49,463 nucleotides of DNA, from positions 1-49,463 of the forward strand of contig JAUCBJ010007095.1 in the NCBI GenBank assembly GCA_032718475.1, in the 5' to 3' direction. Below are positions 4,358 through 23,956 of this stretch, in pieces. The notes under the pieces were generated by a model. It saw only the letters and a list, made by a program, of their open reading frames with translations, ran no database searches and was not told where the DNA came from. Each line of letters starts with the position of its first letter. Position 1 is the stretch's first letter. Position numbers and translations under genes: made by a program. The DNA is from Nemertoderma westbladi. Lineage: Eukaryota; Animalia; Xenacoelomorpha.

Positions 4358-5653
4358 GTGATAGAACTAGATCCAACCAACTGCCCTGACAGACTGTGGC
4401 TGCCAGCCACCAAAGAAGACAAGATGAGTAGAGGAGGAGAAGCAACACCGCCGCGGACCCCGGACGACGATCTAACGATCCGCGAGGCCACGGCGAGACG
4501 GCATCAACCCACGACGCCGGACCCATCGATAACGGGCCATCCGGCGATCCAAGATGAGGGGGGCCGTCTACAAAGAGAGGACGAGTCGGGAGTCGAAAGG
4601 GAGAAAGACGAGTCAACGCGGAGCGAGGGTCGACGTACCAATGTCGCCGGCCAGCCACAGGCCGAGGACGACGAACGGCCCACCGGAACGGCGACGGTGG
4701 GGCCGCCGGTACGACGTTGGACCCGGAGAGATGGAGGAGAGGTCGGCGACGAGGACGTCGGGGTTTCCGATCGACTTCGACGGGCCTACAACGCGACCCG
4801 GGAACTACTAAAGGAGGCCAAGGAGGGGGCGAGGATAGACGAGGTCAAGATGACAAAAGGACTAGGTGAGTCGAACAGATACTTTGATCACCTAGTGTGT
4901 TCTGGGCAGAGAGAACTAGCCGAGGAGAGAGCGAGGGGAGTTGCCAACGAACTGATTGAACTATGGGAGTGTAGGGGTATGGAACCTAGCGTAGTGTACG
5001 TAGGGCCATACTTAGTCGATGCCCGGGGAGTAAAATTAGTGGGTTGGAAGAGACCTGAGGAGGGCGAATCCGAGGTTAAACCCGAGGATTCGGTCTCATC
5101 GGTCGGAGGAAGTTCCGGGAGGCGGGGGAAAGTTAGTGGGACGGAGGGGCGTCGGGAGTCCGTCGCAACCGATAAGTCTGCTACATCCTCCGCAAAAGAA
5201 AGAAGGGTGCGGGAGATAAATCTGACGTATAAATTAGAAATGGCGGCGAATAAGCAGAATGGGTTAGAGAGACAATTGAGGGGTAAAACCGCATACTTAG
5301 AGAAGTTAGGAGAGTTGGCGAGGGAGTATAGAGAGAGAGCCGAGGAGTGTATAGGGCGGGAGATGAGAGTAGGGGACGAGCCGGCGATGTGGCTTGAGAT
5401 AATTGCGAGAGTTGAGTTGTTCGACCAGGGTAACCGAGAGTGTGAGATAGAGGCAGAGCGTGAGCGGGATGATTTGCGTGCCCAGCTAAGGGGGCTTGCG
5501 CAATATCAAGCCAAACTAAACCAGCGCCGATTAGAACTGGCGTGGCAGGAACTATCAGAGAGTGAGACCCCACTTACAAGCAGCGAGCGAGAGAACCAGA
5601 GCTGGTGTAGCCGTACGGGCGGGGGGGGGGGGGGGGTAATAATAGTACGTTAG
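4358..5653 (+). CDS. Gag-like coiled-coil ORF, probably from a degenerate or non-autonomous LTR retrotransposon
   Basis: GC-rich 431-aa ORF in AT-rich surroundings. The PEDSVS plus Ser-rich plus coiled-coil layout resembles the N-terminal part of BEL/Pao and Gypsy Gag. A G16 tract (possible PPT) lies at 5621-5636, and short tandem repeats and hairpins lie in the leader (3804-3832, 4264-4395). No matching LTR pair was found. Confidence 0.35.
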   Translation: MIELDPTNCPDRLWLPATKEDKMSRGGEATPPRTPDDDLTIREATARRHQPTTPDPSITGHPAIQDEGGRLQREDESGVEREKDESTRSEGRRTNVAGQPQAEDDERPTGTATVGPPVRRWTRRDGGEVGDEDVGVSDRLRRAYNATRELLKEAKEGARIDEVKMTKGLGESNRYFDHLVCSGQRELAEERARGVANELIELWECRGMEPSVVYVGPYLVDARGVKLVGWKRPEEGESEVKPEDSVSSVGGSSGRRGKVSGTEGRRESVATDKSATSSAKERRVREINLTYKLEMAANKQNGLERQLRGKTAYLEKLGELAREYRERAEECIGREMRVGDEPAMWLEIIARVELFDQGNRECEIEAERERDDLRAQLRGLAQYQAKLNQRRLELAWQELSESETPLTSSERENQSWCSRTGGGGGGVIIVR

Positions 5654-5692
5654 AAATAGTTAATATTAATAGTACCGTAGTAGATAACCCTA

Positions 5693-6177
5693 AGTAGTAG
5701 AAGAAGAGGGCCCCCCCGCGTACTCCTCCCTAGCCTGGGCTACGGGCTGCATCTCGGAGGGCTATTAAAAACGTGCTAAATCGCGATGTTTAATGACCAT
5801 CTGTCACCATCAATATTGATTCGTGTCGATGCCTTCAACCAATCATTGCCTATCGCCTACGCGTAGCCTAACCTCACGATGCCCGCCTTACTCGATAGCT
5901 GTTACCAACCGTGAGTATTGATTCGTGTTGTTGCATCAACCAACCATCGCATATTCATCTTCGTGTAACCTAACTTCACGAAGCATGGCTAGCCCCCACT
6001 ACGCTATTATATTATATATCGATTGCCAACTCACCACCGCTAGCCACGCACGGCTACTCCTCGACGGCTGTCGCCAAATCAATCCAACCAACCAAGCAGC
6101 CTCCTACCAGTCCAACGCTATGATACGTGAAATTCCGCCACGTTCCAGCTACACGTATACGAACATTTCCATAGTTA
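5693..6177 (+). repeat. Left terminal inverted repeat of the Polinton
   Basis: Reverse complement of 23957-24441, with about a dozen substitutions by eye. The terminus AGTAGTAG is the short repeat typical of protein-primed slide-back initiation. Confidence 0.97.
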
Positions 6178-6447
6178 CTCAACCTAACCTAACCAATCCC
6201 ACAGCATCTGTGCCATATTGAAAGGCTACCACCACCACCACCACTAACATTATACTGCGCGTTTTTATTATAATAATTATTGATTATTATTACACACAAC
6301 CCTATGATTCATATTCTTTCACGTATTTCCTATCCACGCAATCAACCAGCCAGCTATTCATCCACGTTGCTCCCCATCTCTTTTCTTATTCGTTGATGAT
6401 TATGACACGTACCATCTCTTCTTCGTTGACTATGCCACATCGCAAAT

Positions 6448-6461
6448 TTATATATATATAA
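6448..6461 (+). promoter_or_regulatory. Candidate TATA box of the first rightward transcription unit
   Basis: TTATATATATATAA followed 25-35 bp later by an initiator-like TCACTT (6485-6490). Similar TATATA(A) boxes precede other non-structural ORFs (~8003, ~13231, and ~23045 and ~23628 on the minus strand). Confidence 0.45.
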
Positions 6462-6502
6462 CTGAATGCTTTTAATAAAATTCATCACTTGTAATCTTCA
6501 TG

Positions 6503-6802
6503 GTAATATATTGATACCATATCTAATTTTTTGTTCTCACTCTGACATTGTGTTATTTCCTTAATAATTTATACATTATCTTACTCGTTGTATATTCGTT
6601 GGTCGGAAAACGACACCTCATAAAATGATACTGATTCCAGCATTGGGTATCGACCTAAAAACGAAAATCTGAGCTACGTGTCTCACCCGATTTTTGTTTT
6701 TGTGTCGATACCTAATGTCGAACTCAGCAACATTTTTCTTAGGCGTCGTCTTCCGACCAAACACAATTTTAGAGTGAGAACTATGGTGTCAATTTATTAC
6801 AG
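6503..6802 (+). ncRNA. Putative 5'-UTR intron that folds into a long hairpin (hpRNA/mirtron-like)
   Basis: Begins G|GTAATA and ends TTTATTACAG|. Arms 6503-6521/6782-6800, 6533-6554/6759-6781 and 6599-6673/6682-6760 are imperfect inverted repeats. Confidence 0.5.
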
Positions 6803-6857
6803 CGATACGGTTTAAAATTTATCACTTGTAATATTTTTCGTATTTATTATTATTATT

Positions 6858-7919
6858 ATGGCCTTAACGCAAAAAACCGGAGCAACAAATAGCTGGAAAT
6901 TTACTTACAATAAATATACTTGTACCGTCGTTCACAGCAAGTATTTTATTGTGGAATCTCAGGAGGACAACGAATCAATTTGTTTTTCCCATCAAGATAC
7001 CCGCTATTTGTTAGACATTCTAGAAACAACCAACAACCAACATCAATCCAGACCAGCAATTATACCAGGTAGGATATATCCCACTCTTCGTTTTGCGCGG
7101 GGAAATTTGAATATTTCCATCAACCCCACATCGGGTGATGTTTACGTTCAGAAACAAGGCAAATGTAAAGTTCTCAACAAAGCTTTTACTGAAGTTCTAA
7201 TTCAATACAGAGGGAAATTATTGCAATTTCTCTCTCCACCGCTAGAGATTATTAGCGATCAATTCTACATTGAATTATCAAATCCAGAGTTTATTGGATT
7301 TGTAACAGCTTTTAAAGGAACCAACTATGTTGGCTTATGGAAAATCAGCCTCAGATACACTGATAGTGTTGGTTTTAACTATTATACGGGTTTCAATTTG
7401 TCAAAACAGGAACTAACCGTTTTGTTGCGAGAGTGGGACAACCAAGTCGATGAAACAGACAAGCATCTTTTTGATAAAAATATCATTCAATTATCAGACC
7501 GTCTCAAAATGATTAAAACCAATAATAAAAAAATTATTATCACCAACACCGATAATTCTACTGAAGTAGGTGCCGGCGGAAATTCTATCGAGTTGCATTA
7601 CTTGAATGATAAAGCCCATATTAGTTTTCTCAAAGAATCGATGGATGGTGTTTCTCTTACTGAAGCCCATGTTGACGGTTTTGTCCTTTTGGATAAACCT
7701 AAAGCGTTCGTAGAGATCCCATCACCTAATCCAGATGTTGAAGAGAGTTGCTCTCAACCGCAACAGGTCTTTCCTGAAATATTACCTCGGAAGCCAAGAT
7801 CATCGAGTAAATTTACCAACGCATCACCTGCAAAGAAACAGAAAGTTGTCAGTAACCCAGTTCTAGTAGAGCCTGTTACTAATTCTCCATGGAAACCAGA
7901 TTATTATCCTAACATGTAA
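6858..7919 (+). CDS. Putative PC4/Sub1-like ssDNA-binding or co-activator protein (possibly several PC4-like repeats) with a basic C-terminal NLS
   Basis: FVTAFKGTNYVGLWK...TGFNLSKQELTVL resembles PC4 (VxxFKGKxxIDIRE...GISLxxEQWxxL). Similar beta-then-helix endings occur at SICFSHQD and DGVSLTEA. PAKKQK NLS-like motif. Confidence 0.55.
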   Translation: MALTQKTGATNSWKFTYNKYTCTVVHSKYFIVESQEDNESICFSHQDTRYLLDILETTNNQHQSRPAIIPGRIYPTLRFARGNLNISINPTSGDVYVQKQGKCKVLNKAFTEVLIQYRGKLLQFLSPPLEIISDQFYIELSNPEFIGFVTAFKGTNYVGLWKISLRYTDSVGFNYYTGFNLSKQELTVLLREWDNQVDETDKHLFDKNIIQLSDRLKMIKTNNKKIIITNTDNSTEVGAGGNSIELHYLNDKAHISFLKESMDGVSLTEAHVDGFVLLDKPKAFVEIPSPNPDVEESCSQPQQVFPEILPRKPRSSSKFTNASPAKKQKVVSNPVLVEPVTNSPWKPDYYPNM

Positions 7920-8108
7920 GCCTAATCATAAGTTAAACTCTTTGCGGTTTCCAATAGTCATAAGCGATTGGTGATTGGTTTAAAATTATTTCCCTCGCTA
8001 GCATATAAATGTTTAGATGTAGTCAATATCATATCATTTCATTTTATTTTAATCTTTGGAGATATTTTATTATTATTATTATTATTATTTATCTAAACAA
8101 ACTTCAAC

Positions 8109-11100
8109 ATGGATAAAATAACAATATGTTGTTCATTCTGTCATATGAATGTAACTAGACATAATTATTTACGCCACCTACGGTCACATTTTGAAAGTTA
8201 TTCTTGTTTAAAGTGTCATGTCGTGACTTCATGCAGCGAAATTTGTAAACGACATGAAACGACTACTGGTTGTAAAGAAATGGAGTTCCGCACCTATCAA
8301 TTGACTTGTTCTACCTGTAATAAAGAGTATACATATGACAATTATTTACGACACGATTGTCACTTGAAATGTTACTACACAAGAAAGCGTAAATTTCCGC
8401 AACATAAAAATATAATATCTAGAAAAAACTTAAGGGTGGCTCTTGGTACATGCGCAACAATTTTTACGCGGGAACAAGAAGCTCACGATAATCGTCTTGA
8501 AATTTATGTCCACGACCTCCCAACTTCTAGAGATTATCCCGATGTAGAAACAGCAGTAACGCAAATTCGAGGTAATATTCTTCAGTTAATATTAGATAGA
8601 TTGAAAGAAATGAATGTTCTTAGACTGTGGTTAGGTCTAAATGTATTAATGTACAGGTCACATTTTTCAGAAGGTGAGCAATTGGAAACCTTTTATTTTA
8701 ATTCTTCCGGTGGTGCTATTAATACTGTAGATTCGCCGCAAAGTTTTGACACATGGTTTGAGCATGTGCTGGGGAATATATTACAAAAAATAGCCATCTT
8801 TAACACACGTGGTTCTGGGTGGCGTATTAAATCTTTATTAAGGGTTGAAATTAAATTAGCTGAATCTAAGTGTAGGTCGTTACTATATAAGGGGCACGGT
8901 TATATGGAGTTACCTAAGGCTCTAGCGTGTAAACGATGTGTTATAAATGTACAATCGGCTGATAATGACTGTTTTAAATGGGCAATTATATCTGCAAAAT
9001 TTAGTAGCAAAGTGAAAAACAACAAACAGCATACTTCATCGTACAAAAATTATATGACTCATTTCATTTTTGACAACGGGAACAAAGATTATCCAACAGA
9101 GTGGCAGTTAGCAATTAAACTTTTTGAAAAACAAAATTCAAAATATATAATTAATTTACTATGTTGGAATAACGACAACAAACGCACCCCGGTATCTATA
9201 TTAAGACAACCTCCGTTTAGTAAAATTACACCTGATAAACAGTTATTAAATATATTACTTGTAGTAAAAAATAACAATGTACCTAAACTGAATCATTATG
9301 TTTGCATAACTAACTTGAATCGATTGCTGAATACGAGAGCACTTCATATCAGGAATAGGAAATATTGCGAAAGGTGTTTGACTCATTTTTTTCGAGCGGA
9401 AGTTCTTCATCGACACCGTCTCGCCTGCTACCAAGGAAGAAGTCAGCGCGAGAAACTACCTAATAAAAAAAGAACACACATTAGTTTTACAAATTTAGAT
9501 AGAACCTTATCCCCATTGTTTGTCACCTACTTTGATATAGAATGTATCTTACAACCGTCAGTTAATAATCAAATTATACAGGAGCATATACCGTGTGCAG
9601 TGAGTTATTTAATTGTTCCCAATACTGAATTAATTGATGCTCCAAAATGTCATTTGAAAACATTCGTAAAGTCAAATAATAATAATTGTATTCAAGATTT
9701 CTTAGATTCATTATATACTGATTTAACTGAATTATGTTGTTGGTCAGAAATATACACACATAAAACTATGTCATTTACTAATATTGATTTTGTAAATTTT
9801 GAACAAGCAAAATTTTGTTTTTATTGTAATGTTACTTTAAATAATAATGTTGGGAAAAACAGACACCATTCACATATTACAGGTAAATATATTGCGGCAG
9901 CCTGTAATAGTTGTAACCGAAGTTTATCATTGAAACGATACCTGTATGTACTTTGCGGGCACAATTCCAACAACTACGATATACATTGTATATTACAAAG
10001 CGGATTTAGAGATAAGAAATACACAGATTGGGATATAAAGGTTATACCGAGAAATACAGAACGATATATTTCACTGAGTGCCTTTATCCCAATTAAAAAC
10101 ACTTCTAAGAAAATTGAGTTACGTTTCTTAGACACATATCAATTTTTAAGCTTTTCTTTAAGTAATTTAGTTGAGTGTTCAACAAAGGATGTAGCCAGTC
10201 ATGATATAAGCTCAATTTTACCTATTACTCTACAAGAAATGAAATATTTTTATCCAAACTTGAATAACTCAACGATTAAACGGAAAGGAGTATTTCCATA
10301 CGAGTACTTGACAGATATAAATAAATTTAATGATACTGGTTTGCCGTCTATAAATAATTTTTTTAGTAACTTAAGTCAAAAAACATGCACAATTGAAGAT
10401 TATAGGTTTGCGGGAATATCATGGGTAGAATTCGACTGTGTGAATCTCAAAGATTATCTTTTAGCCTATTTAAAACTCGATGTTTGTTTGCTTGCCGATA
10501 TATTTGAGAATTTTAGGAATGTTTGTAAACAAAATTACGATTTAGAAGCGGTTTTTTACTGTAGTATCGCGTCATTTACCTATGATTGCGCGCTAAAATA
10601 TAATAAATGTAAAATAGAATTAATAAAGGATTATCAGACATATAGAGATTTTGAAAAATCAATTAGGGGTGGTGTTTCATTTTGTCGAAAGCATTATATA
10701 GAATCAAATATACCTGGAACAAGTACATATGATTCTACTAAGGAAGAATGCCATATTTTTAATATTGATTTCAACTCTTTATATTCTGGGAATTTAAGTA
10801 AAAAACTACCCACCTCGCAATTCAAAGAAGTAAGTATTAAACATTTAGAGAATGCAATTCCAGAAAAACTAATCGAGTATTTGGTAGATTTAGACATTGA
10901 TGGATCTACTGGATATTTTTTAATATGTGATTTAAATTATCCCAAGGCTATTCACGATCAAACATTACAATTACCGTTAGCCCCTGAGCATTTAAGTATA
11001 AATGAAACAATGCTTTCGCCTTATATGCAGGAACAATTTAATAATTTATCGATACAAAGAGGTACCTCCCGTAAATATAGGATGTCTACACCAAAACTCT

Positions 11101-12167
11101 TGCTGACGCAATTTGATAAAGAGTTTTATCATTTACATTTGAAACTGTTAAAATTTTATATAAAACATGGATTAATTGTTACTAAGCTCCATAAATTATA
11201 TTCTTTTCAACAAGAATTTGTATTTAAAAATTACATAGATTTTAATATTAATCAAAGGCGCCTAGCAAAAAGTTACATTGAAACTGCTGTCGCGAAATTG
11301 CTCAATAATTCACTGTTTGGCAAATCAATAGAGAGGATACGTGACCGATGTAACTTTCGTATCGCAAATAGCAACGATAAATGCGATCAATTGGTAAATC
11401 GTATTAATCATGAACAATTTATAATATACAATAATACATTATCGGGACATTTATTAGTGAAAGACTCTGTAACTCTCGATAAGCCTATATTTATTGGTAG
11501 CGCTGTGTTGGACTTGGCTAAATTGGATATGTATGAGCTGTTTTACAATAAATTGCTACCTATTGAGAAAGAATTAAACTGTCGTATTGAAATTGCTGCA
11601 TCAGACACTGACTCTTTGATAGGTTGTTATTATAATACATCGCAGAATAATTTTTTAAAAGCATTAATTAAAAATAATATTTTAGATACTTCCAATTACC
11701 CTAAGGATCACCCTCTCTACAGCGATAAAAATAAATCCCAACTCTATTACTGTAAAGACGAACTAGCCTCACGTGAAATTAAACAAGCAGTATTTTTAAG
11801 ACCAAAATTATATTCAATTTTGGAATGGAATAACAAAAATATTCGTAGAGCAAAAGGTATTACAAGAGCTGTTGTGGAAACGAATATTACACATGAAGAA
11901 TATTTAAAAGCCTATAACTCAAATGAAGAAATAAAAAAAAACATACACAGATTTCAATCTAAATTACATCGTATTTATACCTTAAAGCAAAATAAATTTG
12001 CACTCAGTAGCTTTGACGATAAACTTTATTGGGTTAATAAAAATCATTCGCTTCCTTGGGGGCACTATAAAACAAACCTCAAAAAACCTATAAAAATATC
12101 AAATATACCAATTTATGAAGAACCAAAAGACGATGGTATTGATGATGAATTATCAAATAGTAAATAA
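8109..12167 (+). CDS. polB: Protein-primed family B DNA polymerase with N-terminal Zn fingers and an endonuclease-VII/HNH-like insertion
   Basis: Exo motifs FDIEC, HNSNNYD and YLKLD; RKGVFPYEY; IRGG; DFNSLY; KLLNNSLFGK; DTDS; RPKLY; AKG; CxxC...RHHSHITGKY...CNSCN insertion; GSGW upstream. Confidence 0.97.
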   Translation: MDKITICCSFCHMNVTRHNYLRHLRSHFESYSCLKCHVVTSCSEICKRHETTTGCKEMEFRTYQLTCSTCNKEYTYDNYLRHDCHLKCYYTRKRKFPQHKNIISRKNLRVALGTCATIFTREQEAHDNRLEIYVHDLPTSRDYPDVETAVTQIRGNILQLILDRLKEMNVLRLWLGLNVLMYRSHFSEGEQLETFYFNSSGGAINTVDSPQSFDTWFEHVLGNILQKIAIFNTRGSGWRIKSLLRVEIKLAESKCRSLLYKGHGYMELPKALACKRCVINVQSADNDCFKWAIISAKFSSKVKNNKQHTSSYKNYMTHFIFDNGNKDYPTEWQLAIKLFEKQNSKYIINLLCWNNDNKRTPVSILRQPPFSKITPDKQLLNILLVVKNNNVPKLNHYVCITNLNRLLNTRALHIRNRKYCERCLTHFFRAEVLHRHRLACYQGRSQREKLPNKKRTHISFTNLDRTLSPLFVTYFDIECILQPSVNNQIIQEHIPCAVSYLIVPNTELIDAPKCHLKTFVKSNNNNCIQDFLDSLYTDLTELCCWSEIYTHKTMSFTNIDFVNFEQAKFCFYCNVTLNNNVGKNRHHSHITGKYIAAACNSCNRSLSLKRYLYVLCGHNSNNYDIHCILQSGFRDKKYTDWDIKVIPRNTERYISLSAFIPIKNTSKKIELRFLDTYQFLSFSLSNLVECSTKDVASHDISSILPITLQEMKYFYPNLNNSTIKRKGVFPYEYLTDINKFNDTGLPSINNFFSNLSQKTCTIEDYRFAGISWVEFDCVNLKDYLLAYLKLDVCLLADIFENFRNVCKQNYDLEAVFYCSIASFTYDCALKYNKCKIELIKDYQTYRDFEKSIRGGVSFCRKHYIESNIPGTSTYDSTKEECHIFNIDFNSLYSGNLSKKLPTSQFKEVSIKHLENAIPEKLIEYLVDLDIDGSTGYFLICDLNYPKAIHDQTLQLPLAPEHLSINETMLSPYMQEQFNNLSIQRGTSRKYRMSTPKLLLTQFDKEFYHLHLKLLKFYIKHGLIVTKLHKLYSFQQEFVFKNYIDFNINQRRLAKSYIETAVAKLLNNSLFGKSIERIRDRCNFRIANSNDKCDQLVNRINHEQFIIYNNTLSGHLLVKDSVTLDKPIFIGSAVLDLAKLDMYELFYNKLLPIEKELNCRIEIAASDTDSLIGCYYNTSQNNFLKALIKNNILDTSNYPKDHPLYSDKNKSQLYYCKDELASREIKQAVFLRPKLYSILEWNNKNIRRAKGITRAVVETNITHEEYLKAYNSNEEIKKNIHRFQSKLHRIYTLKQNKFALSSFDDKLYWVNKNHSLPWGHYKTNLKKPIKISNIPIYEEPKDDGIDDELSNSK

Positions 12168-12693
12168 AAATATAAGTTGTCGGCAAGTGTTAGCGATTAA
12201 TTTTAAAGAATTAAAAAATCAATTATCTGGTAAACACATACTCAAACCAAATCAGTTTATATATAAGATATTTGGTGCCACATTATTAATATTTAAAAAT
12301 GGTCGTATTACATTATTAGGCAGTAAGTATAATTTCCAAAAAGTAAAAAAACATATATTTGATAAAACTAGTATTAATTTGATTTTAAAATCTGTTAATT
12401 TATGTACTTATATTTTTAGTATTAAGTCTGTAGTCTATAGGTTATTGATAAACAATACAGGGTTTTATGTTGTCTTTGATAATGTGCAACTTCAAGTTAT
12501 ATATGAACCTGAAATATTCAATAACTGTAAAGTCAGAATAAATAATAATGTTGTTGTTTGCTGCTTCTACACCGGTAAATGTACATTAATGTGTTCCCCG
12601 TTTAAATTTCATATATATTACCCTATATTCAACAAACTGGTTAATAATTTATTATTGTTTGGTGCGAGGGTTTTTGTTGTAAAATATAATTAG
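12115..12693 (+). CDS. Divergent TATA-box-binding protein (TBP)-like protein
   Basis: Two TBP-type repeats: IVN...INFKEL...ATLLIFKNGRITLLGSK and SVN...YEPEIF...VVCCFYTGKCTLM, compared with TBP LQNIV...TALIFSSGKMVCTGAK and IQN...YEPELF...LLIFVSGKVVLTG. Core-TBP size. Overlaps the polB stop; the true start may be the Met at 12142 or 12145. Confidence 0.82.
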   Translation: MKNQKTMVLMMNYQIVNKNISCRQVLAINFKELKNQLSGKHILKPNQFIYKIFGATLLIFKNGRITLLGSKYNFQKVKKHIFDKTSINLILKSVNLCTYIFSIKSVVYRLLINNTGFYVVFDNVQLQVIYEPEIFNNCKVRINNNVVVCCFYTGKCTLMCSPFKFHIYYPIFNKLVNNLLLFGARVFVVKYN

Positions 12694-13378
12694 TGTGAGT
12701 GAAATTTATTGTTGTTGTTGCTGTTTGGTGGTGGAGATTTTTACTAAAATATATATATATATATTAAATTGGTTGGAAAAAATTATGAATATTTTTTTAA
12801 AATCAACAACTAGTTTGAGAGGAAATTAACTTCAGTAGAGCGATTGTTGCTTGTAACACTCAAGTAGGCATAGTATACTCAGAGGCTGTAGCTAGCTAGC
12901 TAGCTAACTCGGCATTGTTGCTCACGAGTGAGTTACAATAGCGCATCTGTTACTTATGAGTGTGTGAGAGTGCGGTAGGCAACGCTAAGCTCGGTGAGAA
13001 AAGATTAGGGCTATGTGCTGGTATTCATAGTCAAAGACGATGCCCTCCTATCTGTTACTAGTCTGAATACCGGTACATATCATTAAAACATTGGCTATGC
13101 ATCTCCCTACATTCAGAATAGAACAACGACCAGAGCATATATCGCTAATCCGCATGGGAAAGGTTTATGTTATGCATTTTGTTAACTATGAGAATTTTGT
13201 AATGTACACATCTGCGACCCTCTACAAAAATATATATAAACTCAATTTTTCTGAAAGTGAACTCTAATTTTGTTAAATAAAAGAAGAAAAAAATATCAGT
13301 AGGCCTACCTATTCAATTTAAAGATACTCTTTCCGGTATCTAGTTACGACGACAACGACAACTTACCTCAATACAAAC

Positions 13379-13801
13379 ATGACATTCGCCTTTTTCAATA
13401 ACCGTGAGTTGACGAGTTGTATCAAAATCGAATTGCAATCAAGCGACGAAACATATCTCGCAGCATCCAATATTGCTGAGATGGAGTTGCGATATATAAA
13501 CAAAAAATTTGAGATCGGGTTTACTTCGATGGAATATGGAGTAGGTCAAGTAGGTGGTCTACCTTTATCGCCTACAACGCTTGAAATTTCAAAAGATTTC
13601 TCGCTTGTTATAAAGATACAACCATCGCGAATATCGGGAAGCTCACCCTCTAGCGAAAATTGGGAGAATGATGTTGATGACTCGCTTCACTTCAATATAC
13701 CAACACAAAGACCGGTAGAAGTTAGCCGGCCTATAAACAACCATTTACAGGTACCGGCAAGGGAGGAAACTCTACAGATGGACCCGCATATAGGACTATA
13801 A
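13379..13801 (+). CDS. Hypothetical Polinton accessory protein (140 aa)
   Basis: ATG ORF with TATATATAAA at ~13231, AATAAA at 13822-13827 and a GT-rich tract downstream. Confidence 0.6.
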   Translation: MTFAFFNNRELTSCIKIELQSSDETYLAASNIAEMELRYINKKFEIGFTSMEYGVGQVGGLPLSPTTLEISKDFSLVIKIQPSRISGSSPSSENWENDVDDSLHFNIPTQRPVEVSRPINNHLQVPAREETLQMDPHIGL

Positions 13802-13821
13802 AAGGTATAGCCTAATACAGT

Positions 13822-13902
13822 AATAAATTTAGGGTTGTTGTTATTGTTATTGTTATTGTTATTGTTATTGTTATTGTTATTGTTATTGTTATTGTTATTG
13901 TT
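13822..13902 (+). terminator. Poly(A) signal AATAAA plus (GTTATT)n GU-rich downstream tract
   Basis: AATAAA 21 bp after the last + strand ORF, followed by a hexanucleotide microsatellite. Confidence 0.45.
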
Positions 13903-14954
13903 AGGCCTATCAGTTATTGTTGCTTATAAAACTTAGTAGACTGAATCTATTTTATATATAATTAAAAAAAAAAGCGAATACATAAATAAACTAACTATGT
14001 TTTATATAGGCCTCCGTCAACATAGAGTGAATGTTAGTAACAGAGAATGTGGTGGATTTTATATAGGCTTAGTTAGGTATACTGCGGGCCACACCTATTG
14101 TATCCGCGTGGAGCCATTATATGACTGGTTGAATGATGGGGTTCCTGACTAAAAGTTAACGGTATAGCATACAACATAAAGTGAATGTTGAAAGTTAGTA
14201 ACAGAGAGTGTGAGGGGATTTTATAGGTCCAATAGCGCTACCGGTACCTAACTACACCTATTGTGTCTGCGAGGTAGTCAGCTTTCAGTTGAGGAGTAGT
14301 CATTAGGCCTATATGCCTAACCGAATGAAGGTGTACCTTACCTATCCGTAAACCATATTGGGTCAACATGCGAAAAAGGGCCCCGCATAAAGTTAACTAT
14401 AGCTGTATAGGCTTACCTATGCAACAGTAGCACGCAGTAATGTAGATTAGACCAATTAAAGTTGTAAACAGAAAATTGGAAGCATTCAAGTGTAATAGCC
14501 TAATCCTTAAATCAAAGAAACCAGTATGCTCTTGCGCTATCCAAGTATACAGGTACAAGAGTGCTACGGTGCTGGTACCAGTAGGCCTATTGTTAGGTAG
14601 GCCTCCTCTAATGCTGTATTCACGAACCCGCATGTCGACTTAATTTAATTTTATTATTAGTAAGTACGGTACCGGTAACGCTAAAGCTCTGTGGTTGCTG
14701 TCGGGGGCCATTCTGCCGTTCTACAGTTTAGCGTTGTTGGCATATGTAGTAAAATCAGATAGCTACTGGTAGTTAAACTCTGATACAACCGCCGGCTACC
14801 GGTAGGTGCAGGGTGTGTGTGTGTGTGTGTGTGTGTGTAAACTTAAGTCCTACACCTTTAGTCAAACTGAGATATAAAAAATAGATTTTAATGTTTTTAT
14901 TATTTTTATTGACATTAAAACAATTATATTATCCCATCACATTACATTACATGC

Positions 14955-15500
14955 TTAGAGTAAACGCTTTCTCATGAAAAAGTGTAGCGCCTCATACCCC
15001 CCAACGCGTTTTGCTGAGCAGTATCGCAGACAGTTATCCCTTATGTTTAAGTGGAACGTGCATTTACTTTCTACTGTAGTGAATCGGTCGTGAAATCGAC
15101 AAGGCGTTAAATAATCGTGATATTGCTTATATATTCCCAATTTCTCCACCGAATTTGGCTCGAGAACATCGAGTTGGGAAACTAATATTGCCCGCTTCAG
15201 CAACCCAAATACATGAATATTTTTTTTATATTTTAAATGTCTCTTCATATATTTTTTAAAGTCATCTTGAGAAATGTCCCCGTAGTCCCAGGGCAAGTGA
15301 GAAGTCATATCCCGTAAATTGTTTACGTGAGCTGCATCTAAAGCTGATAACTTAATATTAGATGGGCCTTTAATTAAAAACGTCTTTACATTAGTTTTGG
15401 TATAATTAGAATCGTATATTGCAAATTCTTTAAATACTACCGGATACTCCTTATTGTCTATCTTATAATATTGAAAATCAACAAAAATAATATTATCCAT
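14955..15500 (-). CDS. DEDD/DnaQ-like (RNase H fold) protein, probably degenerate, of a type seen in Polintons
   Basis: FVDFQ...FKEFAI, HLPWDYGDI, HVFGLLK and C-terminal CxxH...C motifs. Minus-strand AATAAA signals at ~14896-14910. Confidence 0.55.
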   Translation of the reverse strand: MDNIIFVDFQYYKIDNKEYPVVFKEFAIYDSNYTKTNVKTFLIKGPSNIKLSALDAAHVNNLRDMTSHLPWDYGDISQDDFKKYMKRHLKYKKNIHVFGLLKRAILVSQLDVLEPNSVEKLGIYKQYHDYLTPCRFHDRFTTVESKCTFHLNIRDNCLRYCSAKRVGGYEALHFFMRKRLL

Positions 15501-15535
15501 TTTATCTGATAAACAAAAGCAAGCTAAATGATTAA

Positions 15536-15988
15536 TTACAACGCATGTTGGTTTATTTTATAATAATTAACAAGCCATTTATATAATATTATTTCATTTA
15601 TTTCCACATTATTTGTAAACGCTCTCATTGGATAGATTGTGTGAATACGATTTACCAAATAATACAGACAGTACAGACCGCATGTGGTCCTCCTTGGGTC
15701 TTGAAATTGTTTGCGAGTAGTACGCCACCTTGCGGAATTTTTCTCAAGCCATTTTTCGATGCATCTGTTTGGATATTTTGGTCCAAACGAGTCAAATACT
15801 TCGGCCTCATTATCTCGTATATATATCGCGATCCAATGAATCCCAGACAGATGCTCTTTATCGGTATTTACTATCAAGCCATAATCCTGCCGCTTATTAT
15901 TATCTAATTTAGGTAATTTATTAGCTGGAAACGCACCCAAATAGTGGCCACCCACTGGAAACATATCAAGTTCCTCTGTAGATAACAT
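15536..15988 (-). CDS. Adenain-like (Ulp1/C5 family) cysteine maturation protease
   Basis: NTD...GIHW, FDSFG and Q...CGLYC give the His-Asp-Gln-Cys catalytic set. Confidence 0.95.
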   Translation of the reverse strand: MLSTEELDMFPVGGHYLGAFPANKLPKLDNNKRQDYGLIVNTDKEHLSGIHWIAIYIRDNEAEVFDSFGPKYPNRCIEKWLEKNSARWRTTRKQFQDPRRTTCGLYCLYYLVNRIHTIYPMRAFTNNVEINEIILYKWLVNYYKINQHAL

Positions 15989-15990
15989 AC

Positions 15991-17250
15991 TTAATCGATA
16001 TGTATTTCTTTCCTGCTATTTAAACTTAATGATTGATCATAAATATTAAAAACGATTACATTTATGGTTTCAACCAACGGTTCGGCAAATCTTAATTTTA
16101 ATTGGCCGTTAGTATATATCGACGGTTGCGGATCTCTAACGTAGCCGTCGGCGGTTAGGTCCCAGGATAGGATGGGACAATTACCTAAGTAGGTTTCATG
16201 GTCTATATTATTACCTCCATAACCGTTAATATATGTATTAATGTTCTTCATTAATTGAGTATACTCAAAAATATATGTTCCATCTGTAAAATTAGGTTCG
16301 TATATTACACCCCCTACTGGAAGACCGTCTACAATCAGTTCCGCGCGTCTAAGGTTAAAATGTTCAAATTTCAAGGGATTGCTAATTAATTCTCCTGAAT
16401 AAGCGTTATTTGTTATGAAGCCAATAATAACTAATTTGGGTTTTTTACCATCAAATATGTTTGTTTGGGTGTAATTTGTGGTTTGAGCGGGAATAGTAAA
16501 TGTTGTCACCTCCTTTTTTTGAAATTGATATTCAATATCGTAACTCTCTAAACCTTTTAGGTGACTGCTTTCTATTACTGGATTAACCTCCATTCTAGGG
16601 ATTAGAATCTTTATTTCATCTAATTCTAACCGAAGATTTGTCACAGCGTTTGCGTTTGGAGTGATTTTAAAAATAAACGAATTTGATACTTTTCTAAAAT
16701 GCATTCTTAAATCATACCCGGGTTGTATTATTTTAGTTTCAGTATCAAAATCAATTGTCAATCCACTTACAAATTGCATTTGTTTACTAAAGGCATCAGC
16801 AATAGGATGCGCGCCGGGATCAATTTCATTTCCGTGTTCAGATAAAGGTTGATGAAAGCCACCCGCACCCAGTAGCCCATTTTTATCCTCGTAAGTTGTA
16901 AATAATAAATTGGATAAGTACGACTTGTAGAAATAATGGTTATTGCTATTTTCAACCTGCTTCTCATTAAGGTCTATTTTAATATCACTCCACATAGTTT
17001 CAGCGGGGTAATTCAGCATATAAATATGGGAGTTTTCAAGTCGTCTATCCCAGCGTACAGTACATTTTGTAATTAATAACGCGTCTTGCAGTTTCGTATA
17101 GAATTCATTGGATCTCGGTACAAGGAACGTGACCTCCCTAGATTCACTTCTGAGATTAGATACAGGGTAAATTGTTTCATAATGCTTTGCTTTAAATTCA
17201 GTCTGTATTGGCTGTATAGAAAATAAATCTAATTCCTTAATAATTGACAT
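15991..17250 (-). CDS. Major capsid protein (double jelly-roll, hexon-like)
   Basis: ELDLF..PIQT N-terminus, PKLVIIGF...AYSG...NPLKFEHFNL, WDLTAD and LRFAEPL motifs of the Polinton MCP family; 419 aa; adjacent to the protease gene. Confidence 0.92.
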   Translation of the reverse strand: MSIIKELDLFSIQPIQTEFKAKHYETIYPVSNLRSESREVTFLVPRSNEFYTKLQDALLITKCTVRWDRRLENSHIYMLNYPAETMWSDIKIDLNEKQVENSNNHYFYKSYLSNLLFTTYEDKNGLLGAGGFHQPLSEHGNEIDPGAHPIADAFSKQMQFVSGLTIDFDTETKIIQPGYDLRMHFRKVSNSFIFKITPNANAVTNLRLELDEIKILIPRMEVNPVIESSHLKGLESYDIEYQFQKKEVTTFTIPAQTTNYTQTNIFDGKKPKLVIIGFITNNAYSGELISNPLKFEHFNLRRAELIVDGLPVGGVIYEPNFTDGTYIFEYTQLMKNINTYINGYGGNNIDHETYLGNCPILSWDLTADGYVRDPQPSIYTNGQLKLRFAEPLVETINVIVFNIYDQSLSLNSRKEIHID

Positions 17251-17252
17251 TA

Positions 17253-17816
17253 TTAAAAAATACTTTTTTCGCAGTGTTTCAGTTTACCCTTTATTTTTTT
17301 ATTTTTATTACTACGTCGATGATGTATGTTCATAGACATTGGTCTAGCGGGTCGCTTTAAATCTCTATAAACTTTTTCTACAACTGACCTTGTTGACGGT
17401 TTCATTTTATTTAATGCTTTATTAATAACCGTATTAGCCTGCTGATGTAAGACCCGCTTACCTTTTGGTATTACGTGTTGTCTCATAAATTTTGTGGAAA
17501 AAGGTAAAGCTTTCTGTAAAACTTTTTTAGCTAATGGTTTACCAAATTTTTTCAATGTCGATAAGGTGTCTGTAAATATACCTTCTCCGTGTTGATTTGC
17601 CTGCATACCTCTACGATAACGCTGAAAACGACGTTGTTTTAAGTTTGGACCAAATGTGCCAATTTGTTGACCGTAAGGGTCAATATATGAACCACCTCGA
17701 AAAACAGGAACTTGCGTCGAACCTCTGGTACTTCTACCACCTTTAAAAACAGCAAGATTAGAGTCTGAACCACCATATTGAGGTTTACTGTATCTTTGAA
17801 ATAAATCAGAATCCAT
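17253..17816 (-). CDS. Basic virion core/precursor protein with Gly-Gly protease sites and an amphipathic helix
   Basis: QYGG, FKGG, FRGG and QHGEG motifs followed by IFTDTLSTLKKFGKPLAKKVL; Arg/Lys-rich; sits in the conserved position between mCP and MCP. Confidence 0.7.
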   Translation of the reverse strand: MDSDLFQRYSKPQYGGSDSNLAVFKGGRSTRGSTQVPVFRGGSYIDPYGQQIGTFGPNLKQRRFQRYRRGMQANQHGEGIFTDTLSTLKKFGKPLAKKVLQKALPFSTKFMRQHVIPKGKRVLHQQANTVINKALNKMKPSTRSVVEKVYRDLKRPARPMSMNIHHRRSNKNKKIKGKLKHCEKSIF

Positions 17817-17817
17817 T

Positions 17818-18663
17818 TTAATTTATACGTTTAAAGTGTAATGTAATAGATGTTGTCCCGTATTCAAAATTCAAATCTTTTCCTTCTTTGTCTGTTATTT
17901 CAATATGAATGTATGTTATCTTATATGATTTTTTTACAGGGATGTAATGAATTGTATCCTTGACAAATTCTTTATTTATTACGCTACCATATTTCACATC
18001 ATCAGGTATCGCAACACGACGAAGTAAAGCTAAACCAAAATCGTTAATATATTGATTTTCAATTATATTAGTAGTCACGTACATGTTCGACTTAGGTTCT
18101 GGAATAGAATTGGGTGGTTGAGGGCATAAAAATACCATCTGGTAAGCTTTTTCTCCATTTCCGATAACCTTTATTAAATAACCCTTTATATTATTTTTCG
18201 TCTTCAAAATAATTTTAAAATTTGGATTTAAATTCACGCCGAGATTATTTTCAGTAATTCCAAAATAATAGGCTAATTGTTGACCTATAAATAACTCTCG
18301 CACAGTTTTCCCTAAAATAAATTGCAACCTATTTTGCTGAGTATTTTCAACTATTTGTAATTTATCTTTCAACGCCCCCGTGTTAAAATAATCTATAATG
18401 TCATTGATACTGTAGAACAAACCGGATGGAAGTGTATCCTCAAAATTTTTTTTTCCTTTTTTTAATAAAATAACATTCTCTACATTGTTATACATGGACG
18501 GCAACGTAGCTAAGTAAAATATACTTTTTATACCTACCACCCAGTTTTCGTTTGGGTTTATAGTTAAGGCGCCATGGAAATTTATCTGATAATTACTAGC
18601 GCTATTGCGGGGAAAATCAATTGGACAGAAATTACTTGGTAGTCTTACGTAGAATTCATCCAT
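17818..18663 (-). CDS. Minor capsid protein (penton-like), paralogue 2
   Basis: FYVRLPSN...N..SNY, WVVGIKSIFY, MYVTTNII...LLRRV, YIPV and ITDKEG...F...TSITLHFKR. The ATG at 18663 overlaps the upstream stop. Confidence 0.88.
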   Translation of the reverse strand: MDEFYVRLPSNFCPIDFPRNSASNYQINFHGALTINPNENWVVGIKSIFYLATLPSMYNNVENVILLKKGKKNFEDTLPSGLFYSINDIIDYFNTGALKDKLQIVENTQQNRLQFILGKTVRELFIGQQLAYYFGITENNLGVNLNPNFKIILKTKNNIKGYLIKVIGNGEKAYQMVFLCPQPPNSIPEPKSNMYVTTNIIENQYINDFGLALLRRVAIPDDVKYGSVINKEFVKDTIHYIPVKKSYKITYIHIEITDKEGKDLNFEYGTTSITLHFKRIN

Positions 18664-19555
18664 CACTGCCACCCCGTATTAACTTAAGTGTTATAACAGT
18701 GCGACCTCCGCTGAAGTTAATTAATTCGCCTTGTCCGTCACGTAAAGTAATTAAGATTGTTTTTAGTTTTTTATTCAACAACGGGTAATAGCAAATGCTC
18801 TCGTATTCGTGATTAATATATTTTCGATTTAATTGCGTTAAAGGGCAGGTTCTTAAGAGCGGAGCTAAAGCGTCGCCAACAAATGAGCTCTTAATAATAT
18901 CTGTGTATATAAAGATAGTGTCTTTATTACATGTTATATTCGTGGGAGCTGGAAAATCTAAAATGCCAATTTCCGAAATTTTTGGCCCGCTATAATTTAA
19001 AATTAATATTGGCCCGCTATAATTTAAAATTAATATTGGCTGTTCTATATTGCTTAATTCATCTACTGTAGTGGTACTGTATATATCCCAATTCGGAATA
19101 TCCGGATGATTCCGATCCAATAACGGTTTTAAGCCTAGAATTTGTATTAAATCACCACGTAGACTTAATTGTATTTTTTTCAACTTTTTAGGAAATTTAA
19201 ATTTAATTCTAGAATTATTTGTATTAAAAATGAATTCGAAATCTCTATATTTCGCTTCAGAATTAAACAGTTTATTTATATCATCAATAATGACTTGAAT
19301 AGAGTTATGCATACCAGGAAATAAACTATATAATTTGGCATCTTTTGCATCTACCCCGATTGACAGTGAGATTTGAGTTTGCAGCGTAATATTACTGTAT
19401 GTTGCTTGATATTGAAGCTCGGCAAGCCCAATTTTAGCGTTTGGACCAATATATAATTCTTCGGCTAAATCAACAGTAAACTCGCTAGGATTATTATTGG
19501 GGTAAGTGTTTAATGAGCTATCTGAAAGTAGAGTGATATATGTATCTGTAGCCAT
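18656..19555 (-). CDS. Minor capsid protein (penton-like), paralogue 1
   Basis: YITLLSDSS..YPNN.PSEF, IGLAELQY, IFIYTDII...VGD..APLLR, YYPL and LRDGQGELINF..GRTVITL. Confidence 0.92.
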   Translation of the reverse strand: MATDTYITLLSDSSLNTYPNNNPSEFTVDLAEELYIGPNAKIGLAELQYQATYSNITLQTQISLSIGVDAKDAKLYSLFPGMHNSIQVIIDDINKLFNSEAKYRDFEFIFNTNNSRIKFKFPKKLKKIQLSLRGDLIQILGLKPLLDRNHPDIPNWDIYSTTTVDELSNIEQPILILNYSGPILILNYSGPKISEIGILDFPAPTNITCNKDTIFIYTDIIKSSFVGDALAPLLRTCPLTQLNRKYINHEYESICYYPLLNKKLKTILITLRDGQGELINFSGGRTVITLKLIRGGSDG

Positions 19556-19831
19556 TATTATTATTATTTAAGCTCGCTCTCTCTCTACTTGACTCCATTG
19601 TACATACAGTACAGTACAGTATAATGTTAAATTATAGACATCTGTGACCACGTTCATTGTCGTTCATTGTCGCATCTTCTACAGTATATGCGCGGGATCA
19701 ATATTTTACTGGCTTTATTGGCTTTATTTAAAACGGATGAACTATAGATATAGTAATATCATTCGAGTTAATATTGATTAATTACGGTCATATGCGACCA
19801 AAATGAATTAATATACAGTATAAACCTAAGC

Positions 19832-20920
19832 TTATTGAATATGCTGTACCCACGACTGTTTCTTGGATCCGATGAATCGGACTAAATATTCTTTCTTCCC
19901 ATTGCGTACACGTTCTTTAAGTTTGCCAATATTTTTATCAATTGCTAGATAAATATTACTATTCGGGTGGACCTTTTGGAGTTCGTGAGAATAAAATGAG
20001 CCCTTTATTATAGCTCCAGCGCTGTCCTTAATATCGAACATTACAGCTGGTACTCTATCCAGCCTGACACGATGAATAATAAATAATTCACGTGTCCATT
20101 GTTCTCGATAGCCTTTAGCAAAAGCAGTACGAGCGATAGATAATCGTACTGTATCTCCAACTTTAAATTTTATTTTCTTATGATTAATCTGTCTATATTT
20201 CCCATATAATCTATTCATTAATTCAGTTTCATTAAATTTATTAACTTCAATAGGCGTCATTTTTATTGTCCTATGATATGACCTATTATAAGCCGAGATA
20301 AGCTTAGGTAAAATTTTAATCCAAACATTATTTCCTCGTTGTGTAAAAATTTTGAACATCTTTGTTTTTAATGTTCTATTGAATCTCTCGACAATAGCCG
20401 CCTTATTCACAGAGTACATTACGTAATACTGTATACCTAACGTATCTAAATATTTCCTTACAGATTTATTTAGAAACTCAGAACCTTGATCCGTGGCGAT
20501 TCTGTTTGGTTTTCCTTTCTGGAATATTTTTTGCAATATACTAATAATTTCAACACCCTTTTTTGTTTTCATACCATAGCCAAAAGCAAGCCTGCTAAAG
20601 GCATCAATACATGTTAATATATAGTTATAATTATTATTTTGCGACTTATATTGCTGCATATCCACCAGATCTATCATATATATATCTTTTATGCCTCCCG
20701 TAAATATTTTAGATGTTGGATAATGGTGTCTACGTGGAGCGTGAAGGGTGTATGTCTTTTGCCCGCTCATCCATTTCTGGGCTTGTGCTGGTTTGATGTT
20801 TGCAGCTTTTGCTAATTTTGCAACACTTGCAAATCCCGCAGGGGATGAAGGATCTAAATAAATTCTTAACAGTTTTTTGTCTAAGCTTCGGCTTAAAATC
20901 GGTTTCATCTTGCGAGGCAT
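19832..20920 (-). CDS. int: Polinton retroviral-like DDE integrase with a C-terminal chromodomain-like remnant
   Basis: YLDPSSPAGF, IDLVDM, IDAFSR, TDQGSEF, VERFNRTLK, FKVGDTVR..FAKGY..QW and EYLVRFIG...SWV. Confidence 0.96.
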   Translation of the reverse strand: MPRKMKPILSRSLDKKLLRIYLDPSSPAGFASVAKLAKAANIKPAQAQKWMSGQKTYTLHAPRRHHYPTSKIFTGGIKDIYMIDLVDMQQYKSQNNNYNYILTCIDAFSRLAFGYGMKTKKGVEIISILQKIFQKGKPNRIATDQGSEFLNKSVRKYLDTLGIQYYVMYSVNKAAIVERFNRTLKTKMFKIFTQRGNNVWIKILPKLISAYNRSYHRTIKMTPIEVNKFNETELMNRLYGKYRQINHKKIKFKVGDTVRLSIARTAFAKGYREQWTRELFIIHRVRLDRVPAVMFDIKDSAGAIIKGSFYSHELQKVHPNSNIYLAIDKNIGKLKERVRNGKKEYLVRFIGSKKQSWVQHIQ

Positions 20921-20971
20921 CTTTTCGACAACCGCAAGTAATATGTATATTCAAATCTCTTATAAAGGGCA

Positions 20972-21142
20972 TCACCGTAAGAACAACTGAATTTTTTTAA
21001 TTATTTTCTTTGAAGTTGATGTTTTAAAGGGTTTTCTTTTTGTAGTATTTACTCTAGGTATATCTTGAGGTTTTAAATCAGTAGCTAACGGTTTACTCGA
21101 TACTAAATATAATTTTCTAAATGTTACTCCTGTTTTAACCAT
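20972..21142 (-). CDS. Small basic ORF (56 aa, MVKTGVTFRKLYLVS...), not in the supplied track
   Basis: Manually translated. Starts in a TAATAATG junction right after the upstream stop and fills the gap before the integrase gene. Confidence 0.45.
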   Translation of the reverse strand: MVKTGVTFRKLYLVSSKPLATDLKPQDIPRVNTTKRKPFKTSTSKKIIKKIQLFLR

Positions 21143-21144
21143 TA

Positions 21145-21528
21145 TTACCGTCCGCGGTTAATTTTTTTCGCAATAGCTGCTCCAGCGGCGGCGGCTCCGG
21201 CACTCGCGGCGAGTTTCGCACCAATGCTGAGTAAGGGTATTAGAAACGGTAGTATACCTCCAGATTGATTGCTTAACTTTTTTCTGTAACTTGATATATT
21301 TTTTGTTTTACGGTTGAGTGATTTCAATACCTTCTTATAGCGGCGAATATTTCTAAATGAATGAGGGGTTAATTGTACATTACCTTTTAGAACATTTTAT
21401 GCAGTATTTACAATGAGCCGTATTAATTCGTTACTCGCGGTATGGTTAATAAAATAAGTTCTTTGTTGAGGGGTAGCGCTGCGTAGAAATTCCAGTTCGT
21501 TACGATATTTCTGCACAAGTCTATTCAT
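21145..21528 (-). pseudogene. Conserved Polinton small basic virion protein (NVLKGNV...QSGG-hydrophobic helix) with one in-frame TAA
   Basis: Manual translation MNRLVQKYRNELEFLRSATPQQR...IVNTA*NVLKGNVQL...NQSGGILPFLIPLL. The stop lies at 21397-21399, where the family usually has Leu (TTA to TAA). Confidence 0.8.
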
Positions 21529-21565
21529 TGTTGCAACATTATTGAAAATTGTTACAAAATATTAA

Positions 21566-22249
21566 TTATTTATCATTATTATTATTATTATTATTTTCGC
21601 TACGTTTATAGTCAGTGTAATTTTTAATGTAACAATTATGATTACGAAATATATCAGATCTAAATCTTAAATGTTCGGGTGTTTCCTGTCGTAAATCAAT
21701 TAAGAAATGTGAAAATGGTTGAATTGTCGCATCTTGATAGGAATCAACTAAAAATTTGGTCTGCCCTGGTAACATCTGCTTCGCGAAATTTAAAACCGAT
21801 AAACTGTCTCTCGGATTTTTCATTAATACTAAAGTATGGCTATTAATTGATCTTGTGCGGTTATGCTTCCCACCGTAAAACATGTTTTGCGTTATAAAAC
21901 AAATAAATATATTGGAATGATGAGCTACCTTAGTAAACAATACAGTTAATGCTGTACTGGACTCAGTTTCTGTTAACAAATCATCTATAATTAATAAATC
22001 TCGACTATTCACTAAACTATCTATATTTTCGGGCAAACCTTTGTAAAGGTGAGTAATACCGGGAATAGTCGGGGGATTGCTCCCGTAACAATACAATACT
22101 CGCAAGGGGGCTTCGTTGAAACAACCATTCTTGTGTTTAATTAAATTGCTTACAAAGGTTGACTTTCCAGAACCAGATGGCCCAGAAATTATCATACTCG
22201 TTCCCATTTGAAAGTTTAAATTATATGGACCTGAATTAAAGTCAGCCAT
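21566..22249 (-). CDS. FtsK/HerA (A32-like) DNA packaging ATPase
   Basis: Walker A GPSGSGKS, Walker B LLIIDD, HH, ITQN and NPRD motifs. Confidence 0.96.
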   Translation of the reverse strand: MADFNSGPYNLNFQMGTSMIISGPSGSGKSTFVSNLIKHKNGCFNEAPLRVLYCYGSNPPTIPGITHLYKGLPENIDSLVNSRDLLIIDDLLTETESSTALTVLFTKVAHHSNIFICFITQNMFYGGKHNRTRSINSHTLVLMKNPRDSLSVLNFAKQMLPGQTKFLVDSYQDATIQPFSHFLIDLRQETPEHLRFRSDIFRNHNCYIKNYTDYKRSENNNNNNNDK

Positions 22250-22465
22250 TTATTATTATTATTAAGATATATCAACAATACAATATAATATAATATCAAT
22301 ATCAATATCAATAAACCATCACCATTACTATGTATATAACAATAATTGATGCAACTACAATATTAGAGTACTGTATATTTAATTAACATACGACGCCGCT
22401 ACAGTATGTGACGCTCGCTGCAACAAAAGGTGCTATTTCCAATTATAGTATAGACTGATGTAATT

Positions 22466-22918: not shown

Positions 22919-23086
22919 TTTCCAAATTTTAAAGTAAATTGAAAATAATTACCGCAATACACAACAACAACAACAACAAACAAAACTGTTATACTGTATA
23001 TACAAATACTGCTACAATTTTCGATTATTTAAAAACATCAAAATTTTATATATAATCATAAAATATTTATAATATAGAGGGAAAAG

Positions 23087-23533: not shown

Positions 23534-23956
23534 TATTTAATTTATTTTATTGTAAATCAAACAAACAAAGTAAAAACTTTTAAAATAAAACCATTACAAA
23601 TGATTAATTGTGATTAAAGCAAGAGATTATATATATAAGATATTTTCAAAAATAATACAGGTCTTAAACTGAGAAATAGCCTAAATTCGGTTTATTGATT
23701 GGTTGATTAGCTGGTATGGAACTACTGTATAAACAAAAAAATTATTGCGTAATAATAATCACTAATGCTCGTATACGCGTAGCTGGAACGTGACGGAATC
23801 TCATGTATCATACTGGTTGGTTTGTTGATTTGGCGACAGCGGTCGTGGAGTTGGCAATCAATATAATATAATATATGCATGACGCGTGTAGATGGCCACA
23901 TCGTTACCATATACAGTATACAGTGGTGGTGGTTGGTTGGTTGCCTGGATAGGAAA

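Follow-up and report, generated by a model that had tools for sequence, protein, structure and literature searches.

The probable leader of the first gene in a Polinton of Nemertoderma westbladi contains a 298-nt fold-back (6503-6800), which we tentatively interpret as an old, unspliced 5'-leader structure that throttles this gene. A single event may have brought the fold-back into the viral lineage and, at the same time, duplicated 20-30 nt of the promoter end. With transcription from the TATA box, the RNA would start about 16 nt upstream of an imperfect stem of roughly 110 bp, which scanning ribosomes would be unable to melt. The first protein would then be made only via a bypass. This may be ribosome shunting after a short upstream ORF, as in pararetrovirus leaders, or alternatively weaker starts at a second copy of the promoter motif. 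To our knowledge, almost nothing is known about gene control in Polintons/Mavericks and about their meeting with host RNA defences. The retained 110-bp leader stem is a directly testable handle on this gene control. Our literature search, mostly outside subscription journals, found neither long hairpins nor introns described for Polinton leaders, and the available passages of PMC11296320, PMC3500242 and PMC6152972 hold nothing on Polinton leader hairpins. Within this literature, Polintons have no precedent for a leader of shunt type, nor for a long hairpin released by splicing, should either be true.

The host element

The window, that is, the whole stretch of 49,463 nt of contig JAUCBJ010007095.1, includes an element that the earlier note had named a Polinton. 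This identity holds: terminal inverted repeats (TIRs) and genes for polymerase, integrase, protease, ATPase and capsid were all identified (Table 1). Pfam searches found the integrase and adenain domains, and the capsid and ATPase matches are near full-length. The (AGT)2...(ACT)2 end motif matches the description of Polintons/Mavericks in the passages available from PMC8097293. Scoring of 7992 candidates gave 448 polymerase homologs at E <= 1e-40; the best is 39% identical and many carry PF03175. Seven core ORFs (9270 nt) are open. A 6-bp target-site duplication is absent, the left and right flanks differ, and the right flank directly at 24441 is a 33-nt minisatellite. The missing target duplication, the 12 differences in 485 nt of TIR despite intact genes and the adjoining minisatellite suggest that two elements may have recombined to give this copy or that its flanks may be rearranged.

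The polymerase alignment gathered 106 distant loci: from the metagenomes, the best 80 of 543 matches that were confirmed, and from viruses all 26. A 192-aa protein with a TBP domain match (12115-12693, plus strand; PF00352, E 8.6e-08) overlaps the end of the polymerase gene; none was present in these loci (best 80 of 543 metagenome and 26/26 viral). Retroelements neighbour the Polinton in the window; together with the element type, they point to an animal host. An unusually stable fold (29250-29650; z about -11, 20 shuffles) lies within a reverse-transcriptase ORF. The strongest fold of the window is a host fold-back element at 37000-38040, with 15-nt repeats in inverted arrays. Positions 1-800 are a long array of a 9-nt C-rich unit, telomere-like or a minisatellite.

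Table 1. Features of the Polinton and of the leader of its first gene (positions in the window)
Feature	Position	Strand	Remarks
Polinton/Maverick element	5693-24441		18.7 kb; ends AGTAGT...ACTACT
Left TIR	5693-6177	+	485 nt; 12 differences from right TIR 23957-24441
TATA run and initiator-like motif	6451-6495	+	45-nt ungapped match (76%) to 23637-23593
Direct repeat copy 1	6476-6505	+	core 6476-6495; final three bases are the first hairpin bases
Upstream ORF	6500-6514	+	four codons; first ATG after the inferred start
5' arm	6503-6673	+	unpaired A/U-rich bulges 6522-6532 (11 nt) and 6554-6598 (45 nt)
Apical loop region	6674-6688	+	from folding
3' arm	6689-6800	+	contiguous; competing acceptor AG 6741-6742 inside
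AG proposed as acceptor	6801-6802	+	also within degenerate inverted motif copy 6792-6806 (-)
Direct repeat copy 2	6813-6842	+	in 81% A+T ATG-free stretch; ATG follows after 37 nt
First gene	6858-7919	+	353 aa
Protein-primed DNA polymerase-like gene	8109-12167	+	1352 aa, open frame
Right-end counterpart of TATA/initiator block	23593-23637	-	71 nt before its ORF; without hairpin

Structure of the fold-back

The earlier note had described three nested inverted-repeat segments with an inner stem at 6599-6760, starting at G|GTAATA and ending in an AG. All segments were found at the positions named, and G|GTAATA at 6502|6503 and TTTATTACAG with its end at 6802 are both present. The stability that it had left to a folding test is evident: the segment has a minimum free energy of -127.4 kcal/mol, compared with -52.9 +/- 4.4 in 200 shuffles (z -16.8), none of which was as low. 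The outer stem of 19 bp (6503-6521/6782-6800) forms 17 of its 19 pairs, with two mismatches, and the second stem comprises 22 bp (6533-6554/6760-6781). The inner stem is 76% self-complementary over 166 columns, and helices of 12-15 bp are located in the distal part of the hairpin. The arm alignment has 111 paired columns with 93 Watson-Crick pairs, 6 G-U, 5 A-C and 7 other mismatches; the arms are 84% identical. Core pairs have a probability of 1.0 in leader-length folds. The hairpin is the sole local fold-back of at least 75 bits within the Polinton, and the remaining ones in the window belong to the host element at 37.0-38.0 kb. Two variants of the structure were rejected. One is a switch between two states at the base of the hairpin, in which the first AUG would be hidden; it was populated about 50:50 in folds ending at 6860 and to 4-6% with longer 3' sequence, thus it is not robust. 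A six-pair stem extension to 6484-6489 was not populated in the folds.

A structure acting as RNA may leave a strand bias. The minimum free energy is -127.4 for the plus and -122.2 for the minus strand, the DNA folding energies of the two strands are equal (-67.8 and -68.3), and the informative mismatches are strand-symmetric, with 6 G-U to 5 A-C on the sense strand. The window hairpin thus gives no sign of selection on one RNA strand, although 11 informative columns provide little power. This symmetry is a point against the leader structure. It fits an old inverted duplication at the promoter, formed at the DNA level by snap-back synthesis or template switching. Such a fold-back would be a passenger, or a single-stranded DNA or cruciform signal in strand-displacement replication, and the first gene would be expressed from the duplicated motif behind the hairpin. 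The contiguous 3' arm with bulges in the 5' arm only resembles a copy made with jumps. Other local duplications are present at the inner TIR edges. The repeated motif occurs in the order forward, inverted, forward across the hairpin; the inverted copy, on the minus strand at 6792-6806, is degenerate, and 225 of 37466 element positions score as well. On the other side, the element's own TIRs hold no source of the arm sequence, and no more than about 20 nt separate the probable transcription start from the hairpin, a proximity that a DNA signal does not need. We consider a DNA-level origin somewhat doubtful.

Probable promoter block, direct repeat and leader layout

A direct repeat was said to bracket the hairpin, between a TATA run and the start codon. 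The repeat is borne out by a core with 19 of 20 identical positions (6476-6495/6813-6832), whereas the best of 200 shuffles reached 17/20. It extends to 30 nt at 83% identity with a spacing of 337. The TATA run (6449-6461) upstream and the ATG at 6858 downstream of the hairpin are present. The TATA run plus ATCAYTTGTAAT forms a 45-nt block about 300 nt inside both TIRs, each copy facing the first ORF of that end. The block is thus conserved at both element ends outside the near-identical TIR, and it is likely a Pol II promoter with a start near 6484-6487. The hairpin sits between this shared block and the first ATG, in the probable leader of the first gene, as claimed before. The left end differs from the right: hairpin and second motif copy intervene between block and ATG. 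From this layout we infer that the 337-nt unit is a later gain relative to the promoter block. The second repeat copy has no TATA run at promoter distance.

The stretch from the hairpin to the start codon (6801-6857) is 81% A+T and has no ATG. A stem of such stability would stop ribosome scanning, so with transcription driven by the TATA block, expression of the first gene would require a bypass. Three of the four shunt features in the available text of PMC5902531 are present. Against the leader structure, the stop of the upstream ORF lies inside the first helix, by 12 nt, and 18 nt before the second helix; short ORFs are also common by chance in A/T-rich DNA.

Further functions of the repeated motif were considered. 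A role as a general Polinton promoter word was not supported: in related loci its core showed no enrichment upstream of ORFs (2 in 9150 nt) and tended, if at all, to be more frequent behind stops (9 in 9045 nt). An AATAAA is located at 6474, and the motif may serve as a 3'-end signal. The second repeat copy was not clearly closer to the right-end leader than the first (12 versus 9 of 26).

The promoter block without a hairpin at the right end also fits a host MITE or fold-back transposon as a passenger, which would have reached the leader either prior to integration or later. An insertion is suggested by the size, the terminal inverted repeats and the flanking duplication. The flank carries an unrelated host fold-back element at 37.0-38.0 kb, and one related locus (L059) bears a MITE-like hairpin with a 3-bp duplication. 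The arms argue otherwise. No duplication abuts them, the nearest repeat core being offset by 7 nt on the left and 12 nt on the right, which speaks against a canonical MITE. Target duplications of DNA transposons are far shorter than a repeat of 20-30 nt. The outermost 19 bp already have two mismatches, and a very recent insertion would seldom show the mismatch in the repeat (4-10% at 0.1-0.25% divergence). A second hairpin copy was absent from the 49-kb window, which is a weak test. Overall, a mobile passenger is quite improbable.

Age of the stem

The 18 mismatches in 111 columns require about 8% change per arm. Under neutral decay, the probability that all seven core ORFs stay open is 0.013 at 1.25% change and about zero at 8%. 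The stem was therefore probably imperfect before this copy integrated, and so is older than the integration; a mobile fold-back could, as a caveat, have arrived already imperfect. The repeat copies (83% over 30 nt) and the arms (84%) have a similar divergence, which fits one old event. Long palindromes between direct repeats are deletion-prone, so the retention of the stem suggests a use.

The first gene product

A Pur-alpha/PC4-like fold with tandem repeats was predicted in a low-confidence model for the N-terminal 125 residues of the first protein. The mean pLDDT was 42 overall and about 68 in the matched strands and helices; a trimmed second model was poorer (pLDDT 38). Alignment with 3k44 by VIA-align gave a Z of 11.3 and an rmsd of 3.1 over 120 aligned residues, and Foldseek gave an E of 1e-3. 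The predicted fold suggests that the protein is likely a single-stranded nucleic-acid binder. As a speculation, it may bind the bulged leader as feedback. Relatives of the first protein were found neither by word search nor in viral contigs nor in the Atlas (best value 0.78). A full HMMER scan yielded one relative with 27% identity over 112 residues on a 1.5-kb contig.

Possible splicing and small RNAs

The earlier note had read 6503-6802 as a leader intron. Splicing would lift the scanning block and free a hairpin with a 2-nt 3' overhang, which could be diced or serve as a double-stranded-RNA decoy. The GT...AG geometry on the promoter sense strand is exact and the overhang is as in conventional mirtrons in the passages at hand from PMC4556696. 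GT and AG have local frequencies of 0.044 and 0.02 per position, resulting in a naive chance of about 0.001 for this geometry, and none of 14 other long fold-backs has GT...AG at its base. An A/T-rich acceptor like 6802 is usable in invertebrates. The terminal helix has 19 bp to the first bulge, near one Dicer step, and branch-point-like words are visible in unpaired bulges. Removal as an intron would also provide the bypass that a stem this stable requires in a leader.

The candidate splice sites themselves are weak by consensus patterns for donor, branch point and acceptor. The candidate donor at 6503 matches 5 of 9 U1 positions. Of the 1025 GTs on the plus strand of the element, 258 do at least as well, including the GT at 6491, which has the same U1 match. 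The acceptor at 6802 has 8/14 pyrimidines and no YTNAY 17-40 nt upstream. A better one (6742) is located 60 nt upstream, with 9/14 pyrimidines and CTAAT at -28. Both candidate splice sites are buried in the stem. The first exon would have about 16 nt and would end in ATG, so either splice would create an out-of-frame ORF over the real start, of 30 codons in the spliced leader. Since GTA belongs to the 30-nt repeat and CAG to the inverted motif copy, both dinucleotides have a possible source other than splicing. Intact vertebrate Mavericks are described as having no introns in their genes in the passages available from PMC8097293, which concern genes and not leaders. Splicing of the leader is rather unlikely, and a conventional mirtron does not fit: at 300 nt the segment is about three times the size of mirtrons, which are mostly below 100 nt with a mean of 83-87 in the passages at hand from PMC4556696. 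The broadest proposal is that Polintons repeatedly evolved leader hairpins for early-gene control, and that splicing at the base of this stem releases a giant mirtron-like dsRNA, which would switch on the Pur-alpha-like early protein and be a small-RNA source or RNA-sensor decoy. This combination is improbable.

The hairpin may instead be a Pol II gene in its own right, for a hairpin RNA that Drosha/Dicer-type enzymes would cut with no splicing involved; the second motif copy would then drive expression of the first protein. The TATA block directly before the stem and the 12-15-bp distal helices are compatible with such a gene. It would lack a poly(A)-type hexamer from the end of the hairpin up to 6909, a complementary target in the window, a strand bias and an Rfam family, and is very improbable. 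A decoy analogous to adenovirus VA RNA had also been proposed. As a Pol III gene this did not hold up: by consensus, neither strand has an A/B box, apart from one relaxed B-like word on the minus strand. T runs of 4-6 interrupt the hairpin, five on the plus and four on the minus strand. Rfam, VA RNA family included, gave one chance match (E 0.34) over 5600-8200, outside the hairpin. A tRNA-like gene was rejected with ARAGORN, which found nothing relevant.

Hairpins in distant Polinton-type loci

A homolog of the window hairpin or of the first gene was absent from the 106 distant loci (best 80 of 543 metagenome matches and 26/26 viral). A single-protein scan of viral contigs found no polymerase relatives, and the exact two-arm hairpin pattern occurred in 0 stretches of viral contigs. 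Sister copies of the Polinton were not found by word search, in viral contigs, in the Atlas, by HMMER scan or by the polymerase searches.

Other fold-backs were defined by at least 75 nt and at least 75 bits. In the 700 nt upstream of the polymerase start they occurred in 6 of 62 covering loci, and downstream in 2 of 81 (best 80 of 543 and viral), a difference that is not significant (p 0.08). Six further such fold-backs were present elsewhere, in about 386 kb that are mostly coding (best 80 of 543 and viral). In the polymerase tree (FastTree, midpoint root; loci with at least 400 aligned residues), four of the six upstream hairpins among the loci listed fall into one clade far from the window's polymerase. 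This clade has hairpins shortly before the polymerase (L039:528-713, L042:439-626, L039:3325-3473, L023:1-90, L031:1-105 and L056:1045-1216), several with a GTTCTG/CAGAAC word near the base, and L039 has two hairpin-polymerase units in tandem. L033, a near-complete Polinton, has a fold-back of 249 nt at the end of its contig (3-251); a TATA box together with an initiator-like word is present in each arm, resembling two promoters in mirror image. L021, a Polinton on the window's side of the tree, has three or four hairpins clustered in a non-coding gap (10521-11039). The MITE-like element at L059:460-730, upstream of the polymerase gene, has 55-nt arms and a 3-bp TAT duplication; it is presumably of Harbinger type.

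L039 and L042 share a 187-nt hairpin. Its pairing is kept through 7 two-sided changes among 79 pairs, a level that 3 of 500 shuffles reached; this comes from two sequences only, with the structure derived from the same two. Their homology starts exactly at the hairpin base, which suggests hairpin-ended elements and, like a terminal DNA structure, favours the DNA-level origin of the window hairpin. Pooled pairs of eight other hairpins speak against that origin, with 13 G-U to 3 A-C on the polymerase-sense strand (p 0.02) when L059 is left out and 13 to 4 with it (p 0.05). The pooled ratio differs from that of the window hairpin with p 0.21.

The window hairpin is not a member of the L039/L042 family, as the hairpin model of this pair scores it with 41 bits on both strands and unrelated hairpins with 51-60 bits. 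The model did not find it at default filters. Local alignments did not exceed shuffles, with 0.03 as the smallest p of 24 tests. A GTTCT word that the window hairpin shares with the L039/L042 family, at 19 nt from its base, was rejected after it failed the alignment and model tests. The hairpins of other loci count both for and against the leader structure. Their place before the polymerase gene and the pairing kept in L039 and L042 favour it; against it, they are not homologous, belong mostly to one distant clade and apparently mark element ends.

Comparison with known systems

In its working the hairpin would resemble known structured viral leaders, yet each of the named families has a defining test that it fails. 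Adenovirus VA RNA is a long imperfect stem with Pol III A/B boxes, from a relative in the same viral lineage. The window hairpin shares the long imperfect stem and differs by its TATA-type promoter, the lack of an A/B box, T runs inside both strands and the lack of an Rfam match. MITEs and fold-back transposons are likewise short, non-coding and of inserted appearance, with inverted arms; unlike them, the hairpin has no abutting target duplication and is almost wholly palindromic with diverged arms. The pre-polymerase hairpins of L039, L042, L023, L031 and L033 are also long fold-backs 90-330 nt before the first same-strand gene. They have no sequence homology to the window hairpin, cleaner arms and no GT-AG, and apparently lie at the element end and not inside the TIR.

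Conventional mirtrons have the hairpin base at GT and AG and a short 3' overhang in the passages available from PMC4556696, as does the window segment; its 300 nt, leader position and weak branch point set this putative intron apart. The shunt leaders of pararetroviruses (CaMV, RTBV) and prototype foamy virus, in the available text of PMC5902531, combine a 5'-proximal short upstream ORF, a large stem-loop, an A/U-rich unstructured stretch and the first long ORF. The probable Polinton leader has the same arrangement; its upstream ORF ends 12 nt inside the first helix and not before it, and it belongs to a DNA virus-like element.
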